Below are positions 38,076 through 53,926 of a stretch of DNA of 64,000 nucleotides, piece by piece; positions within the stretch are counted from its first letter, which is position 1; each line of letters opens with the position of its first letter. A model generated the notes under the pieces. It searched no databases, had not been told where the DNA came from, and was given only the letters and a program-made list of their open reading frames with translations. Source of the stretch: Lysobacteraceae bacterium (GTDB taxonomy: Bacteria; Pseudomonadota; Gammaproteobacteria; Xanthomonadales; Xanthomonadaceae); contig JBEBKD010000003.1 in NCBI GenBank assembly GCA_040079515.1, forward strand, positions 68,165-132,164, read 5' to 3'. The translations under genes and the position numbers were made by a program.

Positions 38076-38152
38076 GCGCCTGTAGCTCAGCCGGATAGAG
38101 TAGCGGCTTCCGAAGCCGTTGGTCGGGGGTTCGAATCCCTCCAGGCGCGCCA
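38076..38152 (+). tRNA. tRNA-Arg(CCG)
   Basis: 77 nt cloverleaf GCGCCTG...CAGGCGCGCCA; D arm TAGCTCAGCCGGATAGAGT; anticodon loop TTCCGAA (CCG at 38110-38112); TTCGAAT T-loop; encoded CCA. Confidence 0.97.
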
Positions 38153-38240
38153 TTTCGACAGCGACAACCGCCCCCAACGGACCCGACGACCCCTGCATTT
38201 CGCAGGGGTTTCGCGTTTTGGCCTGTTTGATGTACCGCTC

Positions 38241-39338
38241 GACATCGTCGTCACCTATGAGATCGACCGTCTCAGCCGCTCGCTGTACGACTTCGCCGAG
38301 CTGGTGAAGGTCTTCGACCGGCACGGCGTCACCTTCGTGTCGGTCACCCAACAGTTCAACACCACCGATGCGATGGGCCGGATGCTGCTGATCATCCTGC
38401 TGACCTTCGCCCAATTCGAGCGCGAACTGACCTCCGAGCGCATCCGCGACAAGTTTGCGGCCAGCAAGAGGAAGGGGATGTGGATGCACGGCATCACCCC
38501 GCTGGGCTACGACCTCAAGGATCGGAGACTGGTGATCAACGAAGCCGAGGCCGAGCAGGTGCGGACGTTGTTCCGGCGATTCGTCGAGGTTGGTTCGCTG
38601 ATGAAGGTGGCGCAGGAGGCGCGAGCGCGTGGCTGGCGCAACAAGGACTGGACGACGAAGTCCGGACGGCAGCACATCGGCAAGCGCCACGATCGCAGTT
38701 CGCTGCACAAGATCCTGCACTGCCGGACCTACCTCGGCGAGTTGAAGAGCCGGGATCAGTATTTCGAGGGGACGCACGCGCCGATCATCGACCGCGCCCT
38801 CTGGGATGCGGCACATGCCCGTCTGGCGGTGTGCAGCCGCACCCGCGCCGCCGCGTCGCGCGAGGGCAAGGTGCCCTTCCTGCTCAAGTGCCTGCTCACC
38901 GGCCCCGACGGGCGCGCGCTGACGCCCTGGCACACGACCAAGGCCGGCGGGCGGACCTACCGCTACTACCTCAGTACCCGTGACACCCACGAGGGCCGGG
39001 GTGCGTCGGGCCTGCCACGACTACCGGCGGCCGAACTGGAGGCCGCCGTCGTCGGGCAACTTCGGCACCTGCTCCGGGCACCGGAGATGATTGAGGCGAT
39101 AGTCCCGCAGGCCACCGCGCTCGACCCGACCCTGGACGCAGCGCAGGTGATGGTGGCGATGACTCAGGTCGAGCGGGTGTGGGACGAGCTATTTCCGGCA
39201 GAGCAACAGCGCCTTGTCCGCCTGCTGATCGACAAGATCATCGTGACCCCGACCAATCTGGAGCTCCGGCTACACCCCCTTGGCATCGGTAGCCTCGCCG
39301 CCGAGTCTCGCCGGGTCGCCGAAGGGGCTGAAGCATGA
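38241..39338 (+). pseudogene. Large serine recombinase, N-terminally truncated (catalytic Ser region missing)
   Basis: Homology starts abruptly at DIVVTYEIDRLSRSL...FAQFERELTSERIRDK...GMWMHG..PLGYD; recombinase domain and YRYY zinc-ribbon region follow; no YxRxS motif or start codon upstream. Confidence 0.85.
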
Positions 39339-39746
39339 CTCGGCCGACCCTTTCCATATCCGGCACGGCCAGCAAGGTGATCGCAAGCAACGGGAGCGTC
39401 GTCCTGAACGTCCCGATCGCCCTGAAGCGACGCAGCGGCCGCCGGGTAGTCCTGCCCGTCGGGGGCTGAAGCCGCAACCGGCCGGACAATCGCAACCCCG
39501 CTCCAACTAGCCCTGGCCCGCGGCCACCGCTGGCTGCGCATGCTGGAGACCGGCGAGGCCGACTCCATGTGCGACATCGCCCGCCGCGAAGGCACCAACC
39601 ACAGTTACATCGCCCGGCACATCAACCTGACCCTGTTGTCGCCGGAAATTGTCGCGGCAATTTTGGACGAGACGTTGCCGGAGGGGGTACAGCTATTGAT
39701 GTTGGCTATCAATCCACCAACGTTGTGGGAAGAGCAGATACGATGA
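39335..39746 (+). pseudogene. Small HTH-like protein typically coupled to these serine recombinases, frameshifted
   Basis: ATGA overlap with the recombinase; VPIALKRRSGRR then a +1 shift at the G5 run (39461-39465) into TPLQLALARGHRWLRMLE...SYIARHINLTLLSPEIVAAILD...WEEQ. Confidence 0.7.
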
Positions 39747-40280
39747 GCGGCACCGTCTGAATCTCCGTCGAGTGGAATGCCCGCCGCCGAAGACCGTCTA
39801 TGACTAGGCGTTGATGAGAATCTGGGCCATTTGCAGCATCACCACTTGAAGAGACCGGATGTTCGCAGTCTTTGCTTGGAATGTGGAATCCGAAGCGGGA
39901 ATGCTTGTGTCGATTTCCCTATGCAAATCAGTCATCTGCACTTCCCATACCTAGGAGACTCTGAAGTCGAAGAGTCACTTCGGCAACCGGGCGACCCCTT
40001 GATGCGTGACTAACGTCGGAAGCCAGAACGAGCCTCCGTAGCAAGCAATCGCCGGAAATTGGAGTGGACAATGGGTCCAGGCAACAGCCGCCGATCCAGT
40101 CCACCCTTGAACGATGGATCGAAGGCGACGCCTCGATCGTTCGGGACGAGATTGTAGTAAGGTGCAATCGGGTGAAAGGATACGATGGCTGCGAGCACCT
40201 CCGGAAAGGATGATCCGCCCTTGACCGACTGGTCGACGCTCGTTGCCATCATCGCGACGACGAATTGATAGGGGGCGTTA

Positions 40281-41363
40281 ATGTCGAATCCGCTAATGCC
40301 GGGCGATCCGATGACGGAGGCGCACAAGCAGCAACTGCTGGAGGCCATCCTCCAGAAAATGTCACCACAGGGCGAAAAACCGATCGTAAGGTACGACGTG
40401 TCGATCGATCCGGACATCGAGACCGCGATCCGTCGACTCGCCGACACCGGGACATCTGCAGAGACCGTCTTGAAGGCGCTTTGCAAGAAGGCCAACGAGA
40501 TGGAGACGGCGCTCGATAAACTGAATGCATCCTCGCAGCGGATGCTGAAAGCGCAAGACGACAAGTTGCAGGAGACCCAGCGCCGTTTGGATGCCGCGAG
40601 CGCTGCGCTCGATGGCATTCTGCAGAAGTCGAGCGCGAAGGCCGCTGAACTATCGATGGTGGCGGCAGGCATACCGCAGAACACCCACATTGTCCTGGCC
40701 GAAACCGCCGATGCCACAAGGAAGATTGTTGCCAGCCCCGTAGCTCGAGCGGAGGATGCGTTCGACCGCACCGGGCACGGCTCCGGCGATGAGCGACCGC
40801 CCTCGATTCCCGAAACATGGACGTCCACATCCGGGAACAACAGTACCGCGCCGAGAGGATGGCGTTTTCTCAACCAACCCATCCATGCGAAACATGCGTT
40901 CCATGGTGTTCTGTTGATCGTCGCTTGCACTGCGCTGGCCGCGATCCTGATGCGGGAGTGGAATCAATCCGGTGCCGAAGAAACGGACAGGGCCGCGAAC
41001 GACGTCCCTGCGCTCGAATCGGAACAAAAGGTCGAGCTGCCCCCTGAATCGCTTGAAGATTGCGCGCAGATGTTCGCGGCCCGGGATCCGTCGTGCGAAC
41101 GCCTCGCCGATGATTTCGACAAGGCGTTCTCGATCGGCCGGCACTGCAACAACAGCGACGATGCGTCCGCTGCCTTCTGCAAGCTTGCGAAGAGCCTGCC
41201 TGAAGCAGACGGCAGCGCCAGAAACGGCGGTTACCACTACAGCGCGCTCTGTGCCGTCGTTGCGGGAAGTGTCGCGGAAAATTGCAAACAGGGAATTTAC
41301 CGGACCGAGAAGCGGATGCGGGAAGCTGGCACTGTGGGCGATGGAGGAAACGGCTCTAATTGA
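40281..41363 (+). CDS. Hypothetical membrane protein: N-terminal coiled coil, one TM helix, Cys-rich extracytoplasmic C-terminus (360 aa)
   Basis: Heptad-rich segment (ANEMETALDKLNASSQRMLKAQDDKLQETQRRLDAASAALD); TM HGVLLIVACTALAAILM; six Cys in the C-terminal domain; first gene of an overlapping-stop/start operon. Confidence 0.7.
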   Translation: MSNPLMPGDPMTEAHKQQLLEAILQKMSPQGEKPIVRYDVSIDPDIETAIRRLADTGTSAETVLKALCKKANEMETALDKLNASSQRMLKAQDDKLQETQRRLDAASAALDGILQKSSAKAAELSMVAAGIPQNTHIVLAETADATRKIVASPVARAEDAFDRTGHGSGDERPPSIPETWTSTSGNNSTAPRGWRFLNQPIHAKHAFHGVLLIVACTALAAILMREWNQSGAEETDRAANDVPALESEQKVELPPESLEDCAQMFAARDPSCERLADDFDKAFSIGRHCNNSDDASAAFCKLAKSLPEADGSARNGGYHYSALCAVVAGSVAENCKQGIYRTEKRMREAGTVGDGGNGSN

Positions 41364-42460
41364 GCGCGCCGGCGGAGGCGGCGTTTCCTTCCGGGGGGAT
41401 GAAAGTCTGCACCGCAACGACCCGACCGCGGCATCGCGGCGAGCATGCGGCGTGTGGCAATGGCGCAACAGGACGAATTGCGGAGGGCGGTGTGGGGGCG
41501 TTGTCCGATTGGTCGACAGCACAGGGCATGCGCGGCGTGCATGTCTGGTTCCGGGGGGCCGAGGGCACCTCGGATTTCTCTATCGATGAACCGCCCGAAC
41601 AGCGCGGCGATCCTCTGTTCTCGGACATCCCTTACTGGTACCAGACGCTGCGCGGCGACACCTGGCTGGGCGAGCGTTTGTTTCTGGTTGCGGACGCCCT
41701 GTCGCGGGAAGACACCCATCACGCGGTCTATCTCAAGGACGGACGTCGTTACCTGATCGCGTACCGGATCCATCCGGGGAGCAGAGGTCGGCATGCGGAT
41801 TGCCGCTTTCACGACCTCGATCCCTGGTTGCGGCACTCCGACGCGATGACCGGCCCGTGGCGGGATGCGCTGGCCTGGCTGTGGGCGCCGTTGGCGGGGC
41901 AGCATCTCGTCGAAACGGGCTCCGGGGCTTCTCTTGTCTATACCGGGTATTCGGCGCCGGACGTCGCCGCGACCTGGATGCGCATGCACTGCGAAGCGAA
42001 AGCAGGCGACCGGCTGTTTTTCTGCGTGGACAGCCCGGACGCGCTGCATGCGCTTGCGCAATCGGTCGCAGGCGCAGCGCAGGCGCGTATTGCGCAACAG
42101 GCGCGCTTATTCGCCGCGATCGACCGTGGCATTGCCGACTTCATACAGCAACGGAACCGCTCTGGCTGCATGGCGTGGGGCGATCTCATTCTCAACGCCG
42201 TGCTGCTGAAGAAGTCGGCGCCGGTGCTGGTGAAAAGCGAGCCGGAAAGCGCATCGGTCAACGAGCGGATGGCGGACATGGTCCTCGCCGCGCTGGGCCT
42301 GTCCGATCGCGAGATGTGGCTTGAATTGTCGAAGTGCGGCGCGCATGCCGCGCTGCTGCAGAACCTGGGGGGCAGTCTCAGCGAAGGCTTAGATAATTGG
42401 GAGCTGCTGGTGATGGTGTATTTCTATTGCGAATCGATGAAAGGAGACAGGGGATCATGA
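41360..42460 (+). CDS. Hypothetical cytoplasmic protein, possibly GTPase-associated (GAP1-N-like)
   Basis: Long open frame coupled to both neighbours (TTGA and ATGA overlaps); YLIAYRIHPGSRGRH...FH segment recalls GAP1-N-type domains (by eye only). Start uncertain (41360, 41399 or 41528). Confidence 0.6.
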   Translation: MSAPAEAAFPSGGMKVCTATTRPRHRGEHAACGNGATGRIAEGGVGALSDWSTAQGMRGVHVWFRGAEGTSDFSIDEPPEQRGDPLFSDIPYWYQTLRGDTWLGERLFLVADALSREDTHHAVYLKDGRRYLIAYRIHPGSRGRHADCRFHDLDPWLRHSDAMTGPWRDALAWLWAPLAGQHLVETGSGASLVYTGYSAPDVAATWMRMHCEAKAGDRLFFCVDSPDALHALAQSVAGAAQARIAQQARLFAAIDRGIADFIQQRNRSGCMAWGDLILNAVLLKKSAPVLVKSEPESASVNERMADMVLAALGLSDREMWLELSKCGAHAALLQNLGGSLSEGLDNWELLVMVYFYCESMKGDRGS

Positions 42461-45054
42461 GGGCGCAAGAAGTCGCACAGGAGTTGGGGATCGGAATGGA
42501 TGCGATCCGCAAATTTCTTGGAAATGATGACATCACGGAAGATACGGTTCTGGACAAGATTGCGATCCAAAATCTGAAGCGAGAGTATGCACAGAAGCAA
42601 CAGCAACCTGTAGATTCTCCTGCACCGCAGCCTGTGGACCGGGGTGCCCAATGGGTTGCGGGTATGGCTACGCCCTCTGGTTTGAATTGGAGTTATGGCA
42701 GCGCTCATTCAGGACAACACAACCCAGGCAGTGGAACTAGCACAAACGACGCCGGCACTGCAAGCCCCAACAATAGCAGCGAGCACAGCAACGCCGAGGT
42801 AGATAACGAGAGTGTCCCCAGTGGGCGTGATATCAAGCTTGGCGCGTCCCAGAGATTTCTGGAGCCATATCAGGATTTCAAGAAAAAAATCTGCAACGCG
42901 CCTCACGCGATCATCCTTGGCGCGAGCGCAGTCGGCAAGTCGTGCTGCCTGTCGATCGCGACCAAAGCGATGGGCGTCAGGGCAGCCGACCACGATCTGG
43001 AAGGAACGATTCGTGAGACCTATCGGATCATCAAACTGTCTCAGGCGGGTCAGGGTCCTGATGGCACGCAATGCGTGCTGGTGGATATCGCTGGCGAATC
43101 CTTCATGGCGTGGCTGGGAACACAGCCGGGCGGGGAGGATCCCGACAATTGGGATACGGTATTCGGCAGCGATTTCAAACCTAAAGAAATTACGGACAGA
43201 GAACAACATCTCGTCCAGTATCTCAATCATGCGTCCGCGCTGTATGTCTTGTTGCTCGCGCCAGAGGGAAAAGACGAAACTGCGGAAATGCGCGTCCGCG
43301 CTGCCGCGAACTTTCTGGCCGAAAGCCGCATCCGTGGTATACGCAATAAGCTGGTGACCTTCCTGGTAGTGAAAGCGGACAAGCTTTATGCGCTGCGGGA
43401 CGCTACCGCTTATAAGCACAACGGTGTCGATCTGCGTGGAGATCGGGGCAGAGGCCCGGATTTGACCGCGGTCGACATCGAGAATCTTCCCATTATGGAT
43501 CTCGATGCATGGTTCGTAAAAGCCATGTCGGATGATCGACTTGGCCTCAACGCACTTAGAGCGGTGGACGACCGTGAGGATGACGGCGAAGGTCAGGCAC
43601 CTCGCTATCCTCGGCATTGGAATTACGCCGTAGTACTGCACCCCCCAAGGGACTATCTGCTGCGTTCTTCTCATGCCCAGCTAATGCGGAACGACATAAG
43701 CGACACCAGCAGAGTACTCTGGAGACAATTATCTTCGCGCCTTACCAATCAAATCAGGAGCCCTGAATACAAACGCGAAGAAAAAAAATATTCCGATTTC
43801 ATCAAGAGCGCATTCAGTATTCAGGAAATGCATGGGCAGCATACTACTGAAGTTTCGTCTGAGCGGCGATTACGCATCACCGCGATCGCCACGCCCTTTA
43901 TCTTGATGGCAATAGCTTTTTTTGGGCTGTTGTCAAAAGGTGATTTCGGTCAGCGCTTTTATCAGTTGAACATCCCAGAGACGCCGATCCGAATCGCCGT
44001 ATCCGATGGCGACAAGCCCGCTCCCTATCTGCGCATGGACCTTAAGGACAAGATCCGCATGCTGGCCGATATGACGATGCTCTACGAAAAAAACCGCCCC
44101 AAACTGTACACGATCCGTCAATACTCCCAGTCTTCGAGTGATCCGATGGAGGTAACCGCTGCTCGAAAAGCAGGAGGAACGAACTTTGGATGCGGCCAGA
44201 TCGCGGCTGCCAACAGTCCCGCCGCAGTCAAGTTGAAGACAATGCTGGAAGGCATCAGTCAAGGAACACCCACTTTCCCGGAAGTGTCCGACGATCAGAC
44301 ATCGAAGGTCGGGAAACTGTCGGGACTGGAAGATTGCAGGGACGCCGTGCTGCGCCTGTGGCGTTTACGCATGGCGTTCGCGATCAATGCCGCAAACCTT
44401 GATGAGGTTGGCGTGGATGTTGTCGTCGCGCAGGTGAAAACGATCGGCGAGATGTACGAATCGATCCGACAGGCCGATCCGACCTTGCTTGGCCTCGTGA
44501 ATCTGGAGAACGACCGGGCGCGCGATCTGCCCTTGATCGACAGCATTCTGTCTTCAGCGACAAAAGCGGCGGATGGCAAAACACCTGCTGAAAGCTATAC
44601 GCGGATTCCCGTGGGTGCTTCGACTCTGGGCGACAGTGCCGACGACCCCTGTCGATCGTTCCTGGTCGATGGTGTGATTCACGACAGCGGCAACCATGCA
44701 TCTTCGCCGGCCTGTGCGATTTACATGCTTCGTGCGGGCTGGCTGGATAAGAACGGTGCGCCCGTGAAGAGTCTGGCCGATCTGTACCTGCAGCTGCCCT
44801 ATGAACAGCAACAAGCCTACTGCAATGAATCTCTGAAGAACTGCACATCGACGCTGGAGCGGTGGAATTTTGATCACGATTCTGCCAAGAAAAAAGGCTG
44901 GCTTGCCCTACTGGTTATTCTAGGGCCGATTATATCGATTGTTTTGTGGTTCTGGCGCAAGCGGCTCATGCGTTTTCTGGATCGATGGCCATCGCTGCTG
45001 CATCCTTTCCTGTGGCAGCTCCGCATGAGGCGCGGTGCCGATGGCCAGGCATAA
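42457..45054 (+). CDS. Membrane-anchored TRAFAC-class GTPase with IF2-N-like N-terminal HTH (865 aa)
   Basis: AAGGAG RBS and ATGA overlap; G1 GASAVGKS (42919-42942); G3 DIAGE (43084); G4-like VKAD (43369-43380); TM helices ITAIATPFILMAIAFFGLL and GWLALLVILGPIISIVLWFW flank a ~300 aa extracytoplasmic domain. Confidence 0.8.
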   Translation: MRAQEVAQELGIGMDAIRKFLGNDDITEDTVLDKIAIQNLKREYAQKQQQPVDSPAPQPVDRGAQWVAGMATPSGLNWSYGSAHSGQHNPGSGTSTNDAGTASPNNSSEHSNAEVDNESVPSGRDIKLGASQRFLEPYQDFKKKICNAPHAIILGASAVGKSCCLSIATKAMGVRAADHDLEGTIRETYRIIKLSQAGQGPDGTQCVLVDIAGESFMAWLGTQPGGEDPDNWDTVFGSDFKPKEITDREQHLVQYLNHASALYVLLLAPEGKDETAEMRVRAAANFLAESRIRGIRNKLVTFLVVKADKLYALRDATAYKHNGVDLRGDRGRGPDLTAVDIENLPIMDLDAWFVKAMSDDRLGLNALRAVDDREDDGEGQAPRYPRHWNYAVVLHPPRDYLLRSSHAQLMRNDISDTSRVLWRQLSSRLTNQIRSPEYKREEKKYSDFIKSAFSIQEMHGQHTTEVSSERRLRITAIATPFILMAIAFFGLLSKGDFGQRFYQLNIPETPIRIAVSDGDKPAPYLRMDLKDKIRMLADMTMLYEKNRPKLYTIRQYSQSSSDPMEVTAARKAGGTNFGCGQIAAANSPAAVKLKTMLEGISQGTPTFPEVSDDQTSKVGKLSGLEDCRDAVLRLWRLRMAFAINAANLDEVGVDVVVAQVKTIGEMYESIRQADPTLLGLVNLENDRARDLPLIDSILSSATKAADGKTPAESYTRIPVGASTLGDSADDPCRSFLVDGVIHDSGNHASSPACAIYMLRAGWLDKNGAPVKSLADLYLQLPYEQQQAYCNESLKNCTSTLERWNFDHDSAKKKGWLALLVILGPIISIVLWFWRKRLMRFLDRWPSLLHPFLWQLRMRRGADGQA

Positions 45055-47419
45055 GTCCGCTCCGCAGCCAAGCCTGTCCGCCAGGCTTACGACGGCGCAT
45101 CTTGTTCTGTGGTCGATCGCGCTGATCGTCACGCTTGTCGTTCTTTTGTCAGCACGGACGATGTACACGCGGATGGAGGCCGAAGCGGCAACCACCGCAA
45201 GCGCCAGCCGCGACGACGATCGCGACGGCAACAGCATCGTCCACGCATTTCTGGACATCCGCGAACGCGACGAAGACGCGCCCTTTGAAAGCCTGTCAAT
45301 CCCTAAAGCTGGCGAAAAGACCGTGCGCCTGTGTACACAAGGCACGCAACGCAACAAGAAGGGAGACTGCGGGATGGGGCGGAAGGAGATCCTGTTCGAC
45401 GGGAAACGCGTCGATCTGGTCTTCGCCGCGCCGACACCGGAACAGGGGCGTTTGTACCTGAGAAGCCAGACGGCTGCCGAAGCCGACGTTTACGACTATG
45501 CCATCCCCCCCTGCAATGACCTCAAAGACTGGTGCCCTTTGGGAGATGGGCGCGTCGAAGCCAGGATCGTCCACTATGCCTTCGCGCCCACCCGTCTGCT
45601 GTGGTGGGCATCGCTCAGCATGCTCGCATGTCTGCTGCTGGCATGGCGAGCCGACACACCGCAGCCCGGCGACCTGCTGCCATCGGGCCTCGGGGTTCCA
45701 GCGGCGTTGAGCATATTGCTCGGCGTTCGCTTCTTGATCGCGGTCAATGCCACCATCAGCGACCATACACTCGCCCCGTATGTCGTTTTGACGGGCCTGG
45801 AACTGCTCCTGCTGCCGAGCGCATGCTGGATATTGATGCGGCGTGCCGATGCGCGGAAGCCATGGTTGTTGCTGTTGCCGCATCTGTCCCTGGTGGCGCT
45901 CTGGTGGATCGTGTCGAGCGACGTCAAGATTTCGCAATACCATCCGAACCTCGTCTGGCATCTGTTCCGCATGAAATTGTCCGTATTGACGGACCGTGGT
46001 GTGCTCGCGGTTTTCAGCGACGCCTTCCTGTCGGAACTGTTCGCGACCCTGTGCATTTACATCTCGGCGGTGGTATTTCTGTGCTCGAAAAAGGTCCGCT
46101 CTTTTCTCGGGCAGGATCATCGACGGCACATCCGATGGTTCGTATTGCTCACGCCTTTTCTGCTGGCCTGCCTGTCCCTGTGGATGGTTGGTCAACAGAG
46201 CGAACCTCGGTTTCACTGGTTCGCGTTCGCCTCTTTGTTCGCCTTAGTATTTTTCTGTATCGCGCGCTCGTTTTTGTCGCTCAAGCATCAGGGGCGGCCT
46301 TTGTTCGACAGGGCGGACTGGGCCGGGTTCGGCTTTCTGTTTGCGATGCTTGTGGTCGCGGTGGGCGTGTCTGTCAGACTGCGTGGAATTGATGCAGGCG
46401 CACTGTTGCTGGCGACGTTTGCCGTGAGCATGGTCGTCCATCCGATCCTGTTTTCGGCAAACAGCAACAGCACGTTCGCGGGATCGAAGGCCGATCGTCT
46501 CCTGGGCGGTATTGCGAAGTTTGGATTCATCGTCGCGGCTCTGGTGATGATTGCGATGCCGATCCTCAAGCTTCTGTACCTGCGCGACTTCGAGCAAGCG
46601 CTAACAGCCCAACAAGCCTTGCCGGCCGCTGCTGAGATGGCGCAAAAGGATTCGTCGGCCGCCGCATGGATGAAGACCATGGATGCGCCGGATGTCATGG
46701 GCATCACCGCTCGGCTCAATCCATGTCGCGTGGTTCCGGGCATCGCTGGTCGTCGCGACGGCTCCGCCAGCGGCGCTGGCGGTCCCGAGGGCAGCGAACA
46801 GCGCTCATCGTTGAGTGCGGAGGATGTCGCCTGGCTAGACGACTGCTTCTTGAAGAACGCCTATTCCGTCGTCGATTCAAGCACCCGGGAATATGTGGAG
46901 GAGGGGCATTATTCCGCGAGACTTTACGCTTGGCTCGTCGGCCACCCTTACGATCGCATCTGGGGCTACGAAAGCCTCGGCAAGCTGCAGGGCTATCAAC
47001 AAGCGATCGCCAACAGCGTGCCTGCCGAAGGCCGGTGGTTCCGGGGTGACCTGGATTTGCCCACCGCACACGCTTTGGGCACAAGGGGCACGTTCGATGG
47101 TTTCAGTTACGAATGGCTGGTCGGTCTGCACTGGATCAGGCCCTTCGGTCTGCTCGGCGTCTGCATGATTCTGATCGCCCATGTTCTGCTGTATGTCTCC
47201 ATCGCGCCGTCGAACCTCCTGGCCAGACTCTACGTCGCCGTGATCGGCATCGCATCGATGTGGCTGCCGCTGCAGACTCAGGGCGCATTCGTAATGATCG
47301 GCCAATCGACTCCGCTGTTGACGTTCACCTCGTTCGTCGGAGACTTCGTCGTCGTTCTGTGTCCGCTGCTGATTCTGCTCTGCATCCCGCCTTTCGTTCT
47401 CGAGAAGGAGGAGCGATGA
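45041..47419 (+). CDS. Polytopic membrane protein with a divergent SEDS (FtsW/RodA/SpoVE)-like C-terminal half (~792 aa)
   Basis: More than 10 hydrophobic segments; IDAGALL (DxG), GYQQAIA, LPTAHA...TFDGF, FGLLGV and IGQSTPLLTFTS follow the order of the FtsW motifs DlG, gyQ, LPeahtDF, GlvG and tGxtLPfiSyG; directly upstream of a PBP. Confidence 0.65.
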   Translation: MARHKSAPQPSLSARLTTAHLVLWSIALIVTLVVLLSARTMYTRMEAEAATTASASRDDDRDGNSIVHAFLDIRERDEDAPFESLSIPKAGEKTVRLCTQGTQRNKKGDCGMGRKEILFDGKRVDLVFAAPTPEQGRLYLRSQTAAEADVYDYAIPPCNDLKDWCPLGDGRVEARIVHYAFAPTRLLWWASLSMLACLLLAWRADTPQPGDLLPSGLGVPAALSILLGVRFLIAVNATISDHTLAPYVVLTGLELLLLPSACWILMRRADARKPWLLLLPHLSLVALWWIVSSDVKISQYHPNLVWHLFRMKLSVLTDRGVLAVFSDAFLSELFATLCIYISAVVFLCSKKVRSFLGQDHRRHIRWFVLLTPFLLACLSLWMVGQQSEPRFHWFAFASLFALVFFCIARSFLSLKHQGRPLFDRADWAGFGFLFAMLVVAVGVSVRLRGIDAGALLLATFAVSMVVHPILFSANSNSTFAGSKADRLLGGIAKFGFIVAALVMIAMPILKLLYLRDFEQALTAQQALPAAAEMAQKDSSAAAWMKTMDAPDVMGITARLNPCRVVPGIAGRRDGSASGAGGPEGSEQRSSLSAEDVAWLDDCFLKNAYSVVDSSTREYVEEGHYSARLYAWLVGHPYDRIWGYESLGKLQGYQQAIANSVPAEGRWFRGDLDLPTAHALGTRGTFDGFSYEWLVGLHWIRPFGLLGVCMILIAHVLLYVSIAPSNLLARLYVAVIGIASMWLPLQTQGAFVMIGQSTPLLTFTSFVGDFVVVLCPLLILLCIPPFVLEKEER

Positions 47420-50184
47420 GAAGATTCACGGGTGTCCGGGCTTTCCTGACGAACGGGATGTCGCTCGCGATCGCGGCGTGTTCGCTCGTTTTCGTCTTCG
47501 GCGGATGGGCGGCGCGCGAGCAGGGGCGTCTCCACAACACGCTGGGTCTGCATGCGGCTCCGGCGATGTACCGGTCGCGAATCGAAGGTCATGAGCAATA
47601 CCTTCAAACGACCGCATTCAGATCGAATCGCCTCGGTGTGATCCATTCAAGTGAGCGCGACCAGTCCGGTCGTGAGATCAAGAAATACAGATGCCGCATG
47701 CCTGCCTACGACATCCGATGGCGTCGGTCCGACATCAACGTCAACGAGCATTTGAACGCACGCGAGAAAATAGGCCTGCGCGACACCCCGGCGGCATGCG
47801 GCGACCTTCGCGTATCGAATGCATCGAATCCCGGCCGTAGCGGTTCGGAGCGCTGGATGGATTTCGGCGAGCAGGTCGCTGTGATTCCGATGGTCTCCGC
47901 GACGAGACGCCACTCCGGAATCGACTACCCCGTCGAGCTGCGATATTCGGACAGCACCCCGATTCTGCCGAGAGAAACCCTGGTGCATATCGAACCCCGG
48001 TCCGCAGGCGGCCCGGCGCTGACCGTCCGCATGTCTTTCGATGCCAAGAATACTTGCACCGCGTCTTACTTCGACGGCAGGCTCAGTGACTGCGGAGGGC
48101 TTCCGTCGGCCCGGAACGGCGACGTGGTTCCGATTCGGGGGCCGGGCCCGATCGTCAAAGGCGTGTATCTGGATACGGATCGCAACGACAGCGCGGCGGA
48201 CGTCGCCACTATTTTCATCGATGCGGAAGGCATGATCCGGGTCAGCGGCCACCACTTGTCGACCGCTGCCGATACTGACGCGACCGCAGAACAGACGCAG
48301 GACTTCGATCTTCCCTGCAGCGCGGGGAGTCGACGGGAAGGCGCGGTAGTCCGGCGTTTCAGCGTGGGCCACAAGGCGTATGGTCTGCGCGTTTGGTGCG
48401 AAAACAGCCGGCCCCTGCCGACGACCGAAGCGCAGCGCCTCGCGGACAGGGCATCGAAAGAGGCGCGTTCATCGACAGCGGACGAAGCGCTGGTCGAAAG
48501 CGCTCTGGACACCCGCCTGGATGCGGAATTGAACCGTGCGCTGCGCGAGCGGTGCCCGCATTGCGAAGTGCTGGTGATGGATACCTTCCGCGGATCGGTA
48601 GTCGCCATGGCAAGCGGCCGCGTCGCGAAGGACAAGGACGGAATGCGGGTCACCAACTTCGAGCGCAAGCCCCAGGGCTCGGTGGTCAAACCCATCTATG
48701 CCACCGCAGCGCTCGAAAGCACGGAAGGGGATCGCGGCACGGCGGTCAGCCCGCTGCTGTCGCTTCGTATGTCGTCGTTGCAGCCCGATTACCTCGATCC
48801 CAAGAGAGGATGGATGTCCTGTCGCGTCGCCAACGGCGCCATTCCGGGCTGCCTTCGCGATCGGAAAGGGGGATACGACACTCACGCGGTTGGAGGCGAG
48901 TACGATTTCTATCGATTCATGGTCAGATCCGAGAACGTCTACGCGACGACCCTGCTTTATCTGGGCAGCAGCAGACCTTTGAGCGATGCGGACGGCGATT
49001 GCGAGAACGCTTTCGAACTCCTTCCCGCTGTGCCGGAAGTCGATGCCTGGCAGCTGACGATCGAGGGTCGGGATGCGCGCGACTGGGCCGCGAAGCGTGT
49101 TCCGCTGTTTAATTCAAGGTCGAAACTCTCCTGTTTGAATACCGGGATGCTGCCCTGGCTGTCGTGGCTGCGCGAGCACATGAACATCGGCCGTCGCAAC
49201 GAGTATTTCAGGTCCTACCTCTGGCTGGACGAGCATCGCGCTGCGCTGCGCATCGAAGGCCTGCACTCGTTGGCGCCAGAACTCGAACACGCAACTCTTT
49301 TCGAAAAAGAAGGCGTATGGCGCAGACAAGGCTTCATCGAGTCCAGTGTGTACAAATCCCCTTACGGCGGGGGGGACGCGCTGTGGACGAATGTGGGCAT
49401 CGCCGAGGCGATTTCGACGATCGTCTCGGGCAGTGACCAGAAAGCGTCGTTGTTGGCGCATTCGCTTCGCGCAGAACCCAGCGCGTCGCCACTGGGTTCG
49501 TCGCGCGCTGCCGTGGCAAAAGCTATGGCCGGCGTAGTGGGAGATCCGGAGGGTACCGCGAACCGGTATTTCCATTCGATGATCGAGGCCTGCGGCCCTT
49601 CGCCTCAAGCCTGCGTGCGCACACAGCAGTATGGGCCTATCCGGGTCCTGGCGAAGACAGGAACGCCGAAACGGAGCCCGGATGGCGGTCACGCTAAAAA
49701 AAGGATCGAAGCGCGCTTCCCGGTGCTGACAGGCGGTCGATCCCGCAGCGCATTGTGCCAGCCCTTCGAAGGGAATCGTTCGAGCTGTCGATTGACTGCG
49801 GAAGGCGATACTCTGTTCCGAACCGTGTCGATGGCGTACCGATACAGCAGCACATCGGACAACCTCGGCAAACGGCTCGATGACAAGGCGCTGCGCGGCG
49901 CATTTCAACGCTGGTTGTCGGAGGAAATCCTGGCCAGCGACAGCGGCGATGGGCCTTCCGAAGGCGGCAGCGACGATCAAGGCCAAGAAAGCCGTCTCGT
50001 GGTCGTGCTGTTGCAGCCTGCGCAAAACGAAGAAGCGATGCCCAAGGCAGGATGTACGCTGGTGATGACTTCGGAAACGAAGAACCCTCAAGCACTGGTG
50101 GATATCCTCGGACAACTGTTGCGCGGTGAGAGCTTGTTGCGATCCTGCCGCTTCTTGCCCGTGCAGGCGGATTCAACCAGATGA
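47416..50184 (+). CDS. Penicillin-binding protein, transpeptidase domain with large N-terminal extension (922 aa)
   Basis: AAGGAGGAG RBS and ATGA overlap; N-terminal TM; VLVMDTFRGSVVAMAS; SxxK = GSVVKP (48679-48690), SxN = SEN (48928-48936), KTG = AKTGT (49654-49662). Confidence 0.85.
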   Translation: MRRFTGVRAFLTNGMSLAIAACSLVFVFGGWAAREQGRLHNTLGLHAAPAMYRSRIEGHEQYLQTTAFRSNRLGVIHSSERDQSGREIKKYRCRMPAYDIRWRRSDINVNEHLNAREKIGLRDTPAACGDLRVSNASNPGRSGSERWMDFGEQVAVIPMVSATRRHSGIDYPVELRYSDSTPILPRETLVHIEPRSAGGPALTVRMSFDAKNTCTASYFDGRLSDCGGLPSARNGDVVPIRGPGPIVKGVYLDTDRNDSAADVATIFIDAEGMIRVSGHHLSTAADTDATAEQTQDFDLPCSAGSRREGAVVRRFSVGHKAYGLRVWCENSRPLPTTEAQRLADRASKEARSSTADEALVESALDTRLDAELNRALRERCPHCEVLVMDTFRGSVVAMASGRVAKDKDGMRVTNFERKPQGSVVKPIYATAALESTEGDRGTAVSPLLSLRMSSLQPDYLDPKRGWMSCRVANGAIPGCLRDRKGGYDTHAVGGEYDFYRFMVRSENVYATTLLYLGSSRPLSDADGDCENAFELLPAVPEVDAWQLTIEGRDARDWAAKRVPLFNSRSKLSCLNTGMLPWLSWLREHMNIGRRNEYFRSYLWLDEHRAALRIEGLHSLAPELEHATLFEKEGVWRRQGFIESSVYKSPYGGGDALWTNVGIAEAISTIVSGSDQKASLLAHSLRAEPSASPLGSSRAAVAKAMAGVVGDPEGTANRYFHSMIEACGPSPQACVRTQQYGPIRVLAKTGTPKRSPDGGHAKKRIEARFPVLTGGRSRSALCQPFEGNRSSCRLTAEGDTLFRTVSMAYRYSSTSDNLGKRLDDKALRGAFQRWLSEEILASDSGDGPSEGGSDDQGQESRLVVVLLQPAQNEEAMPKAGCTLVMTSETKNPQALVDILGQLLRGESLLRSCRFLPVQADSTR

Positions 50185-50193
50185 AGAGATGAC

Positions 50194-51029
50194 TGGAGCC
50201 TACCTCAAAATCGAAATCTGAGAAAAACTGCTTCAAAATATCGGGATGGTGAAGATTTCAGACGCGCATTGGGACCGGATCAGGCATCACTTTCCGGAAG
50301 AGAGCATCCCCGACGAGAGGCCCGGCCGTAAGCCGGTGCCTGCACGACGGGTGCTTGATGCGGTGTTGTGGATGCTGAAGACCGGCGCGCAATTGCATAT
50401 GCTTCCGCAATCGTATCCGAACTACAAGACCGTGCATCGTCGGTTCCAGATGTGGGCGGAGCAGGAGGTGTTGCGCGGCATCCTGGTCGATCTGTCGAAC
50501 GAGCTACGGGACCAGGATCTGCTCGATACGTCCGAGTGTTACATCGACGCGACGTTCGCGAACGGGCGTGGTGGGGGGTTGGAGATCGGCAATACGACGT
50601 GCGGAAAAGGCGTGAAATCATGGCGGTCGTGGATAGTGCAGGTCTACCGCTATCGGTGAGCACGCATGCGGCGAACCACCATGAGGTGAAGCTGGTGCAG
50701 ATGAGCTTCGACTTCTACATGATCGAGGCGATGCCGGACGTCTTGATTGGCGATCGTGCATACGACAGCGGCGATCTGGACGACGATTTGCGCGGCAAGG
50801 GCGTAAAGATGGTGTCGCCGCATCGGAAGAACAGGAAGAAGCCGAAGACACAGTATGGTCGGGAGTTGCGGAGATACAAGCGACGCTGGATCGTGGAGAG
50901 GTTCTTCGCCTCGATGAAGCACAAGCGCCGGTTACTGAATCGTTGGGAACTGTATCCGGAGAATTTTCTCGGGTTTGTGCAGATTTCCGCCGTGGTTTTG
51001 CTGCTCAGGCAATTTTGAGATGGGTTCTA
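50194..51029 (+). mobile_element. IS5-family insertion sequence (degenerate)
   Basis: Terminal inverted repeats TGGAGCCTACCTCAAAAT vs TAGAACCCATCTCAAAAT (reverse complement of the right end), 14/18 match; ~835 bp; encodes the transposase below. Confidence 0.85.
50246..51018 (+). pseudogene. IS5-family DDE transposase in two frames
   Basis: Frame 1: DAHWDRI...GRKP...VLDAVLWMLKTG...YKTVHRRF...YIDAT. Frame 2 (-1): IMAVVDSAGLP...GDRAYD...YKRRWIVERFF. Shift at GTG AAA TCA near 50615. Confidence 0.85.
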
Positions 51030-51625
51030 CTCATCGACCTGCGCGAAAACCCCGGCGGCGATAATTCTTTCAGTGATCCGTTGCTCGCCTGGATCGCCGA
51101 CAAGCCATTTCGCTTGACCCATCGACTCGAGATTCAAGTAATCGCGCAGACCACCGCTGCCAACCGCCGACGCCTGCAGGAGACCCGCCGCAACCAGGAC
51201 AGCATTTCGGCCCGTTTCGATGCTCTGTATCGGGGATGCAAACCCGCAGCGTCGCCGTCTTTCCAATGCCCTGGGCACAACCACGCCCCAGCCAACGTTT
51301 CGAAGGTGAGGTGTTCGTTCTGGTGAACCGGCATTCGTACTCGAACACCGTCACGGTCGCGGCGATCGTGCAGGATTTCGGCTTCGGTAAGGTGATCGAC
51401 GAACCTACTGCCGATCTCGCCAGCACGCTCAGCGCGATGGAACGTTTCACCCTGCCACACACCGGGATCGACGTGGGCTATCCGAAAGCGCGCATACTGC
51501 GCCCGAACGGCGGCCCACGCCCAAGCGGAGTGACGCCGGACATCATGATCGACATGCCGATCGTGGGCGACATCGAGGACACTGTCCTGCAACATGCACT
51601 GGGTGCGATCGGGCAACGGAGATAA
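51029..51625 (+). pseudogene. S41 peptidase 3' fragment, 5'-truncated at the IS end and frameshifted
   Basis: IDLRENPGGD, VFVLVNRHSYSN and GVTPDI motifs; frame change near 51235. Confidence 0.8.
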
Positions 51626-51908
51626 GGCGGTCGATATACGTGCGGACCCTTTCCTTTGCGGCCGATAATGGCCACCGATGAGGATACGCACCCGGGCTCG
51701 TTCACGCTGACAGAGAAACGCGCTCGTCTCCTCTTGCGCGCCATTGCTCGGCGCTGCGATCCAGCGTGAGAGAGGACTTGGATGTTGCGTGCTCTGGCTG
51801 CGCCATTTTCTCTTCGGATATTTCCCGGGTCGGGATTGCCGGCCGTCGCGCGAAGCGCGACGGCGTTCACAGCCACGCGCGGCATGCCGCGCAAACGTGG
51901 CGCCTCAC

Positions 51909-51924
51909 CCCTCCAGGCACGCCA
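51909..51924 (+). repeat. att-core copy of the tRNA-Arg 3' end
   Basis: CCCTCCAGGCACGCCA vs tRNA 38137-38152 CCCTCCAGGCGCGCCA (15/16). Confidence 0.75.
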
Positions 51925-52097
51925 ATTTCTTTCTGATGCTCCAGGTCTTCCGCCTGCTGATTAGTGAGCGTCCCTGTCTTAATGGTTCTTTGGTTCGCGC
52001 AGGCCCTGACTGAGGCGGAACGCCGGGCCTGAGAGCCCACGATGCGCTCGGTGCAGAGTCCGGACGTCCCGCCATCGAACAGCAAGATGCCTGCGGC

Positions 52098-53471
52098 TTA
52101 TTTCGTTCCCATCTCCCGCGCAGCGCGCACACCAGACAAATAGGCACCATGAGTGGTACTGGAGTAGTTGCGCTCGGTCGCCTCGCCCGCGAAGAACAGG
52201 GCACCTTCGAGTGGAGCGGCCAGCGCATCGCGCGTGGCGGGCGTGGTACCCAGCGCATTGAACGAGTAGGAGCCGCGTGCAAAGGGATCGCGATGCCAGC
52301 GGGTAATCTGCACGTCGAGCGGTTCGGGAATATTGTCTCCAAGCATGATCCGCAGCGTGCGCATCGCGTCCTCAACGATCGCCTTGTCGTTCCAGCCTTC
52401 GATCTCGATCCCGCGATCCGCGGCGTTGAAGCCGAGCAGCACCGGTTGCCGCGCGACACGCTGGAAGCTCACCCATTCGGTCCATGCACCCGGCGTTTCC
52501 GGGAGGTATTCCAGCCAGTCGGCGTCCTTGTCCCAAAACGCTTCTGGAAATTTCAGGTAACACTTGTTCAGGGTGCCCATGCCCAGGCGTTCGATGGCCT
52601 CGCGCTTGGCAGCGGGCAATTCGGGAACGAAGCGGACGCTTCCGGCTTTGAGTACGCCCAGCGGTAAGGTGATCAACACTTGCTGGGCCTCGAACTCGCC
52701 GGAGGACGTGACCACGCGAACCATGCCGCGTCGCCAGTGGATCTCGCGCACCACCTGATCGAGTTCGATCTGCAAACCCTCGGCCAGATGATCGGCGATC
52801 ACCCGGAAGCCGTCGGCGAACAGCATGTCGCCGCCGCCGAAGCCGTCTGCGGCATCAAACCAGTGGGCCGACAACTGCGACGCGCCGCCCGCGTATTCCT
52901 GCTCGATGTCGGCGCTGACCGCGAACGCCAGGTCGCGACGCTGCGCAGGCGTCGCCTTGATCTTCGTCGACAGCGCATCGACCACAGATTGCACCGAAAC
53001 ATCGCGATCACGCTGCTGGGCGCGCTCCAATGCATCGGCAAGCCGTTTGCGCAGCGCGTCCAGTGCTGCGGCACGGGGGCCCTCGACTGCGCTCCCGTCC
53101 GTATCGTGCAGAACGCTGCGATCGTATTCGGTACGCAGTCTCTTGGCCTGGTGGCCATCGGCCAACCCGGTGATCGGGTTGCCGCGCACGCCGTGGATCC
53201 AGGTCGCCCCCAGATCCAACGGCAACTCGGGCCACCGCCTGCTGGTCCAGACGCGGCCGCCGATGCGGTCGCGCGCTTCCAGTACCAGCACTTCGCGCCC
53301 CGCGGCTTGGAGTCTGCGCGCGGCGGACAGACCAGCCAGCCCCGCACCGATCACAAGAGTCCGCCTCGCTGGTTTCGCCTGATCTGTGCGCTGCGATGCA
53401 GCCGCCTGCACACCGCCGTGGGCACTCAGCGCGATCAAGCCCAGAAGTTCCATGAATTGCCGTCTTTTCAT
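52098..53471 (-). CDS. Tat-exported flavin-dependent amine oxidase (polyamine oxidase/MAO family, 457 aa)
   Basis: MKRRQFMELLG twin-Arg signal; VIGAGLAGL, LEARDRIGGR, DLGATWIHG, ITLPLGVLK, WHRDPFARGSYS, FAGEAT and HGAYLSG motifs. Confidence 0.9.
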   Translation of the reverse strand: MKRRQFMELLGLIALSAHGGVQAAASQRTDQAKPARRTLVIGAGLAGLSAARRLQAAGREVLVLEARDRIGGRVWTSRRWPELPLDLGATWIHGVRGNPITGLADGHQAKRLRTEYDRSVLHDTDGSAVEGPRAAALDALRKRLADALERAQQRDRDVSVQSVVDALSTKIKATPAQRRDLAFAVSADIEQEYAGGASQLSAHWFDAADGFGGGDMLFADGFRVIADHLAEGLQIELDQVVREIHWRRGMVRVVTSSGEFEAQQVLITLPLGVLKAGSVRFVPELPAAKREAIERLGMGTLNKCYLKFPEAFWDKDADWLEYLPETPGAWTEWVSFQRVARQPVLLGFNAADRGIEIEGWNDKAIVEDAMRTLRIMLGDNIPEPLDVQITRWHRDPFARGSYSFNALGTTPATRDALAAPLEGALFFAGEATERNYSSTTHGAYLSGVRAAREMGTK

Positions 53472-53859
53472 GCGGTGACTACGCCTCCGAGCACGCATGT
53501 GTGCTGGCGACAGGATATCTGCAGCCGGCGCGCGCGTGCGACACGGCCTCTTGCCATCCACCGCCAGAACGCCCTTCCACCCCTCGATTGCTGATTCGGA
53601 TTGGAATGCATCTCCCGAAGACGAGGCGGTCACTACGTGGGTGAGGATGGTGCGTTGCAATAGCCGGGAGCCCCTCGCTGGGGCCTTGCTTCACTACGCT
53701 GCGCTGCGATCAGGCCTGAGGCGGCGTTTGGATTTCTCGCGCTCTGGCTGCACCATTCCCTTCCGTCGAAACACTTCGGTCGGGATTGCCGGGCCTTCAC
53801 TCTTCGCGCGACGCGTTCGCCACCACGCGCGGCAGTGCCGCGCAAGCGTCGCGTCTTAC

Positions 53860-53926
53860 CCCTCCAGTCGCGCAAAATCGACCAGGACAACCGCGCTCTG
53901 CGGTACCAACGACCCCTGCATTTCGC
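53860..53926 (+). repeat. Degenerate att copy: tRNA 3' end plus 51 nt of the element's left arm
   Basis: Ungapped 53/67 match to 38137-38203, with GACAACCGC and ACGACCCCTGCATTTCGC exact. Confidence 0.8.

Follow-up and report, generated by a model that had tools for sequence, protein, structure and literature searches.

In a 64,000-nucleotide (nt) window of a Lysobacteraceae genome (assembly GCA_040079515.1, contig JBEBKD010000003.1, positions 68,165 to 132,164 of the forward strand), we describe a five-gene operon, located at positions 40281-50184 of the window, whose products we call p1 to p5 in gene order. Three adjacent genes of this operon encode a predicted membrane-spanning GTPase of the TRAFAC class (p3), a polytopic membrane protein (p4), and a divergent transpeptidase resembling the class-B penicillin-binding proteins (PBPs; p5), and these three always travel together in this order, i.e., they do so in every one of the five divergent lineages that we recovered. 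The PBP and the GTPase come from known superfamilies, while their combination, the architecture of p3, and the proteins p4 and p2 are new. Our tentative interpretation of the sequence data, to which we give slightly less than an even chance, is that the operon encodes an accessory wall synthase or remodeller that spans the envelope, is controlled by the GTPase, and moves horizontally.

The operon and its products

An earlier interpretation of this DNA, made from the letters and their translations (the sequence-only reading), described five co-oriented, unbroken genes chained by overlapping stop and start codons. The list of open reading frames (ORFs) and their translations confirm five long ORFs on the + strand, all of them unbroken (Table 1), and the chaining is present at three of the four junctions. 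The p2/p3 junction is an ATGA at 42457-60 with AAAGGAGA just 5' of it; the p3/p4 junction is a 14-nt overlap, with the ATG of p4 at 45041 and the TAA of p3 at 45052-54; and the p4/p5 junction is again an ATGA, at 47416-19, with AGGAGG 5' of it. A TTGA is present at 41360-63 between p1 and p2, but the chain probably does not extend to this junction: homologues of p2 at four other loci (L001, L002, L083, and L035) start at the position of the GTG at 41492, which is also preceded by a strong Shine-Dalgarno sequence, GAAGGAGG, and this GTG is therefore probably the true start of gene 2, rather than the TTG at 41360. Starting there leaves a gap of 128 nt 3' of p1, and one public gene call gives the same 322-amino-acid form of p2. 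In the stretch 41360-41491, the NCBI-style annotation lengthens p2 by 44 codons, beginning at the TTG that overlaps the p1 stop codon. The G+C content of the operon is 0.56-0.62, compared with 0.64-0.69 in many stretches making up much of the remaining window.

Analysis of p5 showed it to be of the class-B PBP type, i.e., a predicted membrane-anchored, periplasmic acyl-serine transferase. The protein has 922 amino acids and an N-terminal transmembrane (TM) helix, and carries the motifs S422-V-V-K, S505-E-N, and K747-T-G(T). When an alignment of the p5 family was compared, using hhalign, with class-B PBPs (25 proteins from 13 genomes), the two matched at 97.3-97.6% probability (E 2e-11 to 2.6e-12) over ~270 columns, with GSVVKP placed on SxxK, SENVY on SxN, and KTGTP on KTG; the match to class-A PBPs was weaker (82.8%). 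All three motifs are invariant in four lineages (the homologues from the window, L003, L083, and L036), among homologues sharing only 22-27% identity, and the proposal that p5 is a transpeptidase with intact SxxK, SxN, and KTG motifs is thus well founded. As a single sequence, p5 scores 14.9 bits in Pfam, under the 22.1-bit cut-off, with the Transpeptidase, PBP1A, and PBP2 models all sub-threshold, and residues 35-345 gave no PBP_dimer match in the Pfam scan.

The 865-amino-acid p3 contains a G1 motif at 155-162 (GASAVGKS), a G3 motif at 210-214 (DIAGE), and a G4 motif at 305-308 (VKAD). Residues G155, G160, K161, D210, G213, E214, and K306 are invariant in the family alignment, and the G4 motif reads VKAD, NKAD, or TKND in all lineages except one. 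Comparison with Era/Der-type G domains using hhalign gave 93.7% probability (E 1.9e-7), the alignment spanning G1, the switch-I Thr, and G3, and two members of the p3 family have weak MMR_HSR1 matches in Pfam. In addition, the N-terminal segment of p3 is homologous to the part of a relative, P0015, that matches IF2_N at 1.9e-7. Two TM helices (474-492 and 814-832) flank a 320-amino-acid domain with four invariant Cys, and since it is bracketed by these helices we predict this domain to be periplasmic. This analysis shows p3 to be a TRAFAC GTPase joined, via two predicted TM helices, to a predicted periplasmic domain, with the Walker-B glutamate (DxxGE), and agrees with the sequence-only reading, which had called it a membrane-anchored GTPase.

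The gene between these two encodes the 792-amino-acid p4, in which a beta-rich periplasmic domain at ~60-180 is predicted after TM1, and a large periplasmic loop at ~525-690 (170 amino acids) is predicted before the last three TM helices. Residue D294 is invariant in all seven sequences, and D451 and G453 are invariant in an alignment of six; all three are periplasmic in the predicted topology. At the time of alignment four full-length lineages were available, and these conserve the motif LQTQG.F..G.STPLLT.TSF..D. The extramembrane domains of p3, p4, and p5 were placed in the periplasm by hydropathy and invariant Cys pairs.

Of the two remaining products, p1 gave weak coiled-coil-type matches and has a single TM helix, with Cys residues at 261-335 in its C-terminal part; it shares 57% identity with its L003 counterpart, and a weak N-terminal similarity is seen in L035. 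A bitopic coiled-coil accessory protein of this kind brings to mind FtsB and FtsL of the divisome. The p2 protein has no TM helix and has homologues in L001, L002, L003, L083, and L035. It matched no Pfam, PADLOC, or PHROG family, and a Pfam scan at E <= 1 gave no GAP1, GASH, or GAAD family, so that the GAP1-type partner proposed for the GTPase was not found in p2.

Table 1. Features of the operon and of the surrounding tRNA-Arg island (window coordinates).
Feature	Coordinates	Strand	Description
p1	40281..41363	+	Bitopic: cytoplasmic coiled coil, TM helix 206-224, C-terminal part predicted periplasmic
p2	41492..42460	+	Soluble, 322 amino acids (probable start; alternative annotated start TTG 41360)
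p3	42457..45054	+	IF2_N-like head, TRAFAC GTPase, TM helix, predicted periplasmic domain, second TM helix
p4	45041..47419	+	Polytopic, ~14 TM helices; no family assigned
p5	47416..50184	+	Bitopic, class-B-PBP-like: TM anchor, 340-amino-acid domain without known family, transpeptidase domain
tRNA-Arg (CCG), left island border	38076..38152	+	ARAGORN
attL-like copy	38137..38203	+	tRNA 3' end and downstream hairpin; direct repeat family D1
Large serine recombinase	38241..39338	+	N-terminally truncated; Pfam Resolvase, Recombinase, Zn-ribbon domains
Small divergent ORF or promoter region	40010..40252	-	tblastn with a 106-amino-acid called gene of L003: 56% identity over 75 amino acids
IS5-family transposase	50246..51018	+	Two overlapping ORFs; Pfam DUF4096 7.6e-21, DDE_Tnp_1 1.8e-15
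attR-like degenerate copy	53860..53926	+	tRNA 3' end and downstream sequence; 79% identity to 38137-38203

Conservation, distribution, and mobility of the gene set

Homologues of the operon are extremely rare. Only four clusters matched when 1.84 billion representative proteins were searched with a HMMER profile of p3, and a scan of metagenome contigs with the alignment of the p4 C terminus found one locus, L083; the contigs behind the p3 profile matches, together with this metagenome contig, make up the five lineages. The same metagenome scan with the p3 alignment gave no match. A word-index search of 5.8 billion clusters returned one to two relatives per protein, a pattern scan of 185,579 species genomes found no relatives in two runs, and no match was found among plasmids or phages with tblastn. 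A p4 profile run over 400 genomes of the phylum matched only the window's own genome, in addition to one 21-bit match that is probably spurious, and phmmer and hmmsearch of the operon proteins against PDB sequences gave nothing.

Lineage 1, the window type, comprises the window, L003/L004, and L001 (79-83% identity), and lineage 2 is L002, at 44% identity. In lineage 3 (L083), identity ranges from ~23-42% by protein, and all five genes are present with ATGA-type overlaps. Lineage 4 (L035, ~21-27% identity) contains p1-like and p2-like genes, p3, p4, and the start of p5. Lineage 5 (L036-L038, ~20-27% identity) contains p3-p4-p5 and, 3' of these, three more genes, one of them for an M50B-like membrane protein. 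For the sequence-only reading to hold, the gene set had to be kept together elsewhere, and this is what we observe: the p3-p4-p5 set and its order are constant in all five lineages, and the 4-nt or 14-nt overlaps recur in the window, L003, L083, L035, and L036. Genes resembling p2 are detectable in four of the five lineages and genes resembling p1 in at least three; hhalign comparison of the p1 and p2 families with the three extra genes of L036 showed no relation. The G+C content of the lineages ranges from 0.40 to 0.63, and their hosts are therefore diverse.

The genes that surround the operon differ from locus to locus. L036 (5534-9756, 16644-19244), the most distant variant, has the extra Peptidase_M50B-like membrane protein 3' of the PBP gene, and is preceded, in divergent orientation, by a PF10136 site-specific recombinase and a PIF1-like helicase. 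Upstream of the operon in L083, at 1668-2663 on the - strand, there is a fragment of a type I restriction HindI-like endonuclease (C-terminal domain), which is the only defence-type neighbor seen at any locus.

Comparison of the window with L003 showed 85.7% nucleotide identity over exactly 40071-50194, i.e., a block of 10.1 kb that occupies another chromosomal locus in this related organism. In the window's own genome, the sequences flanking the L003 block are found on contig C13, where ~1.3 kb stands in place of the 14.6 kb that includes the operon in L003. Since the block is at a different locus in L003, and is missing from the C13 site, we conclude that it moved as a unit, and the proposed mobility of the operon is thereby borne out. 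The small divergent ORF or promoter region at the left (Table 1) falls inside the block that moved together with the operon, and the IS5-type transposase begins ~50 nt past the p5 stop codon, just beyond the end of the conserved block (50194). Between the window and the L003 copy, the ratio of nonsynonymous to synonymous substitution rates (dN/dS) is 0.29-0.36 for p2-p5 and 0.53 for p1. We also considered the operon as decaying cargo and rejected this, given frames that are intact in every lineage and dN/dS of 0.29-0.53.

In the window, the operon lies in a 15.7-kb tRNA-Arg island (38153-53926) bracketed by a 67-nt repeat, which consists of the last 16 nt of the tRNA-Arg and 51 nt of downstream sequence and was found in two copies, not three. 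In two genomes of the same genus, the left flank is shared only as far as 38219-38224 and is followed by unrelated DNA for >18 kb; this tRNA is therefore a variable hotspot. The flanking cargo had been described as broken, which is true of the serine recombinase but not necessarily of the transposase. The recombinase matches the Resolvase profile from position 65/145 only, the N-terminal catalytic part being missing, and the Recombinase profile at 8e-12, with its ORF extending upstream through the tRNA-Arg. A layout of two ORFs is normal for the group of IS5-type insertion sequences to which the transposase belongs, so that this gene need not be broken. The island also contains an intact flavin amine oxidase gene (52098-53660, - strand).

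Proposed function and competing explanations

In the interpretation that we tentatively favor, the operon products would form a self-contained complex spanning the inner membrane. The cytoplasmic G domain of p3 would act as a nucleotide switch, aided by the soluble p2 and the coiled coil of p1, and the state of this switch would be relayed across the membrane by p3 and p1, via their TM helices and periplasmic domains, the signal arriving at a periplasmic catalytic pair formed by p4 and p5. Here the substrate of p4, acting as a polymerase or ligase with conserved periplasmic Asp residues, would be a lipid-linked glycan precursor, and p5 would either cross-link peptide stems or trim them. As a whole, the module would be a switchable accessory peptidoglycan synthase or remodeller, acting beside the RodA-PBP2 and FtsW-FtsI of the host. 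The genome retains canonical SEDS-PBP sets, with a SEDS gene adjoining that of PBP2 on contig C15 and, on contig C4, another that lies ~4.4 kb away from a second canonical class-B PBP gene, and the operon set is therefore supernumerary.

Several points weigh against this interpretation. The p4 protein has no detectable relation to SEDS, Wzy/WaaL, or GT-C families, and the role in glycan handling that we propose for it is drawn from topology and gene adjacency only. The first 345 residues of p5 matched class-B PBPs at only 0.2% in hhalign, i.e., the pedestal, which is the part of a class-B PBP that normally contacts SEDS, is unrecognizable. PBP-fold domains may also serve as sensors or hydrolases. 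Finally, dN/dS values near 0.3 indicate moderate constraint only.

The sequence-only reading had called p4 SEDS-like, and the strongest of the alternatives is built on this: p4 would be a genuine SEDS glycosyltransferase, albeit an extremely divergent one, and p4-p5 a fourth kind of SEDS-class-B PBP synthase, gated by a GTPase. We consider this unlikely, although not strikingly so. As in the RodA-PBP2 (MrdB-MrdA), FtsW-FtsI, and SpoVE-SpoVD pairs, a polytopic gene adjoins, and is translationally coupled to, the gene for a bitopic PBP directly downstream of it, the transpeptidase domain of p5 is homologous to those of class-B PBPs with its three motifs intact, and the catalytic parts are predicted to be periplasmic. 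Exactly three C-terminal TM helices come after the big periplasmic loop of p4, as TM8-10 do after SEDS extracellular loop 4; among the three polytopic families compared with p4 (SEDS, Wzy_C, and PMT_2), SEDS scored best; and the sole local hhalign alignment is topologically sensible, setting p4 701-780 on the last three SEDS helices and STPLLT.TSF on PLP..SYGGS.

Against this, p4 could not be demonstrated to be a SEDS protein by any of the searches made. A PF01098 search of the genome matched only the two canonical SEDS genes, on C4 and C15, leaving p4 unmatched, and a Pfam scan of seven members of the p4 family found no family at E <= 1. Comparison of p4 with 29 SEDS sequences using hhalign gave 7.5-8.9% probability (E 0.004), with a shallow query profile (Neff, the effective number of sequences, ~2.2), and the score of 34.4 falls within the range of 20-36 obtained with 30 block-shuffled controls. 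As a sensitivity control, a SEDS alignment compared with Wzy_C, the O-antigen-ligase family, reached 83%, and the method is therefore able to see remote relatives; both control alignments were small and home-made (loci L005-L034 and L127-L156). Two AlphaFold2 runs on p4 gave poor models, with a predicted local distance difference test (pLDDT) score of 37 and 48.8, and a Foldseek search of the low-confidence model (48.8) against PDB returned nothing at E <= 0.001 and no SEDS, such matches as it gave being meaningless. These tests of family membership are weak, since only about five lineages are available. In addition, p4 is double the size of a SEDS protein, with ~14 TM helices instead of 10 and two periplasmic domains, and p5 differs from class-B PBPs in its unrecognizable pedestal and its sub-threshold Pfam scores. 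The operon also departs from SEDS-class-B PBP pairs in having as its putative regulator a TRAFAC GTPase that is integral to the membrane and is a product of the operon itself, rather than FtsZ or MreB, and in being an accessory set that is island-borne and extremely rare.

We are somewhat more doubtful again of a further claim, namely that the p3-p4-p5 triad is an unrecognized trans-envelope machine in which a membrane-integral GTPase directly gates a private wall-building or wall-editing pair, and in which the polytopic subunit would represent a new family of lipid-linked-glycan enzymes, unrelated or anciently related to SEDS.

An explanation that we regard as improbable is that the operon encodes a sensor device, in which the PBP-like domain would bind beta-lactams or muropeptides, p3 would relay this inward, and p4 would serve as scaffold or transporter. 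The acylation motifs are retained in PBP-fold sensor domains such as those of BlaR1 and MecR1, p3 connects its cytoplasmic switch GTPase, across the membrane, with a predicted periplasmic domain rich in Cys, and the L003 block adjoins genes for a GerE-type regulator and a hybrid histidine kinase with a response regulator. However, these two-component genes are absent at the other loci, the operon encodes no DNA-binding or other output domain besides the small IF2_N-like head of p3, p5 is nearest to high-molecular-weight class-B PBPs and not to class-D-like sensor domains, and a conserved polytopic partner of 700-800 amino acids would be unexpected in a simple sensor.

We give similarly low odds to a conflict system, in which a DO-GTPase-like switch would sense invasion and drive the wall-remodelling pair, leading to repair, exclusion, or abortive infection. 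DO-GTPases are TRAFAC GTPases with a Walker-B glutamate that are paired with a GAP1 protein, and some of them have TM helices along with wall-binding domains in the periplasm; a theme of PBP or SEDS is not described for these systems (Kaur, Burroughs, Iyer, Aravind, eLife 2020, PMC7159879). The p3 protein shares their defining motif, with an invariant Walker-B glutamate (D-x-x-G-E-x-F/W), as well as membrane association, an extracytoplasmic domain past a TM helix, and a variable, mobile location. The block, which has a very patchy distribution, is part of a tRNA island and moves as a unit of its own, and the L083 copy adjoins the type I restriction fragment. However, p3 matched DO-GTPase1 and DO-GTPase2 in hhalign at only 10% and 38%, respectively, compared with the far higher value for generic Era/Der-type TRAFAC domains; a search of the genome with PF19975 (DO-GTPase1) gave no match; and Pfam scans of seven p3 relatives listed no DO-GTPase family. 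The operon encodes one GTPase, not a pair, and p3 has an IF2_N-like head in place of zinc ribbons. There are no GAP1, GASH, or FNIII components in the operon, and a Pfam scan of all five products at E <= 1 detected no GAP1, GASH, or GAAD family. The placement of p3 among the DO-GTPase conflict systems is thus not supported. The role in defence or insult sensing that had been suggested fares no better: in PADLOC-DB 2.0, p3-p5 had no match and p1 and p2 matched only at the level of coiled-coil noise (E >= 0.013), a PHROG scan of the five proteins gave no match, and neighboring genes vary by locus and are not consistently defence genes, which leaves island location and patchiness as the observations that point to such a role.

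Least probable of all is synthesis of an envelope polymer other than peptidoglycan, with p4 a Wzy/WaaL-like polymerase or ligase and p5 a transpeptidase-like attaching enzyme, since, while p4 has conserved, predicted periplasmic acidic residues and large periplasmic domains and is not assignable to SEDS, it showed no significant similarity to Wzy_C (3%) or PMT_2 (3.7%) in hhalign, none of the loci contains glycosyltransferase, flippase, or sugar-nucleotide genes, and the motifs of p5 are those of D,D-transpeptidases.

Novelty and implications

Scans of the five proteins against Pfam, NCBIfam, PADLOC, and PHROG yielded nothing significant, the PBP matches being sub-threshold, and searches of the literature for a system combining GTPase, SEDS, and PBP did not turn up this gene set. 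The view of the sequence-only reading that no named system has this composition therefore stands across the databases and literature searched. Four clusters among 1.84 billion representative proteins, and five divergent lineages, limit the general impact of the system.

Peptidoglycan synthesis is organized by cytoskeletal NTPases that act at a distance on SEDS-class-B PBP pairs. If our interpretation of the operon as a GTPase-controlled accessory wall synthase or remodeller is true, a transmembrane GTPase hard-wired to its own PBP and polytopic partner, in an operon that passes between genomes, would provide a compact, genetically tractable model for nucleotide-controlled wall synthesis, and at least three new protein families would be represented, i.e., p2, p4, and the periplasmic domain of p3. 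In practical terms, the operon raises the question of whether mobile, highly divergent PBPs that are missed by annotation pipelines can alter beta-lactam susceptibility or envelope repair in the bacteria that carry them.

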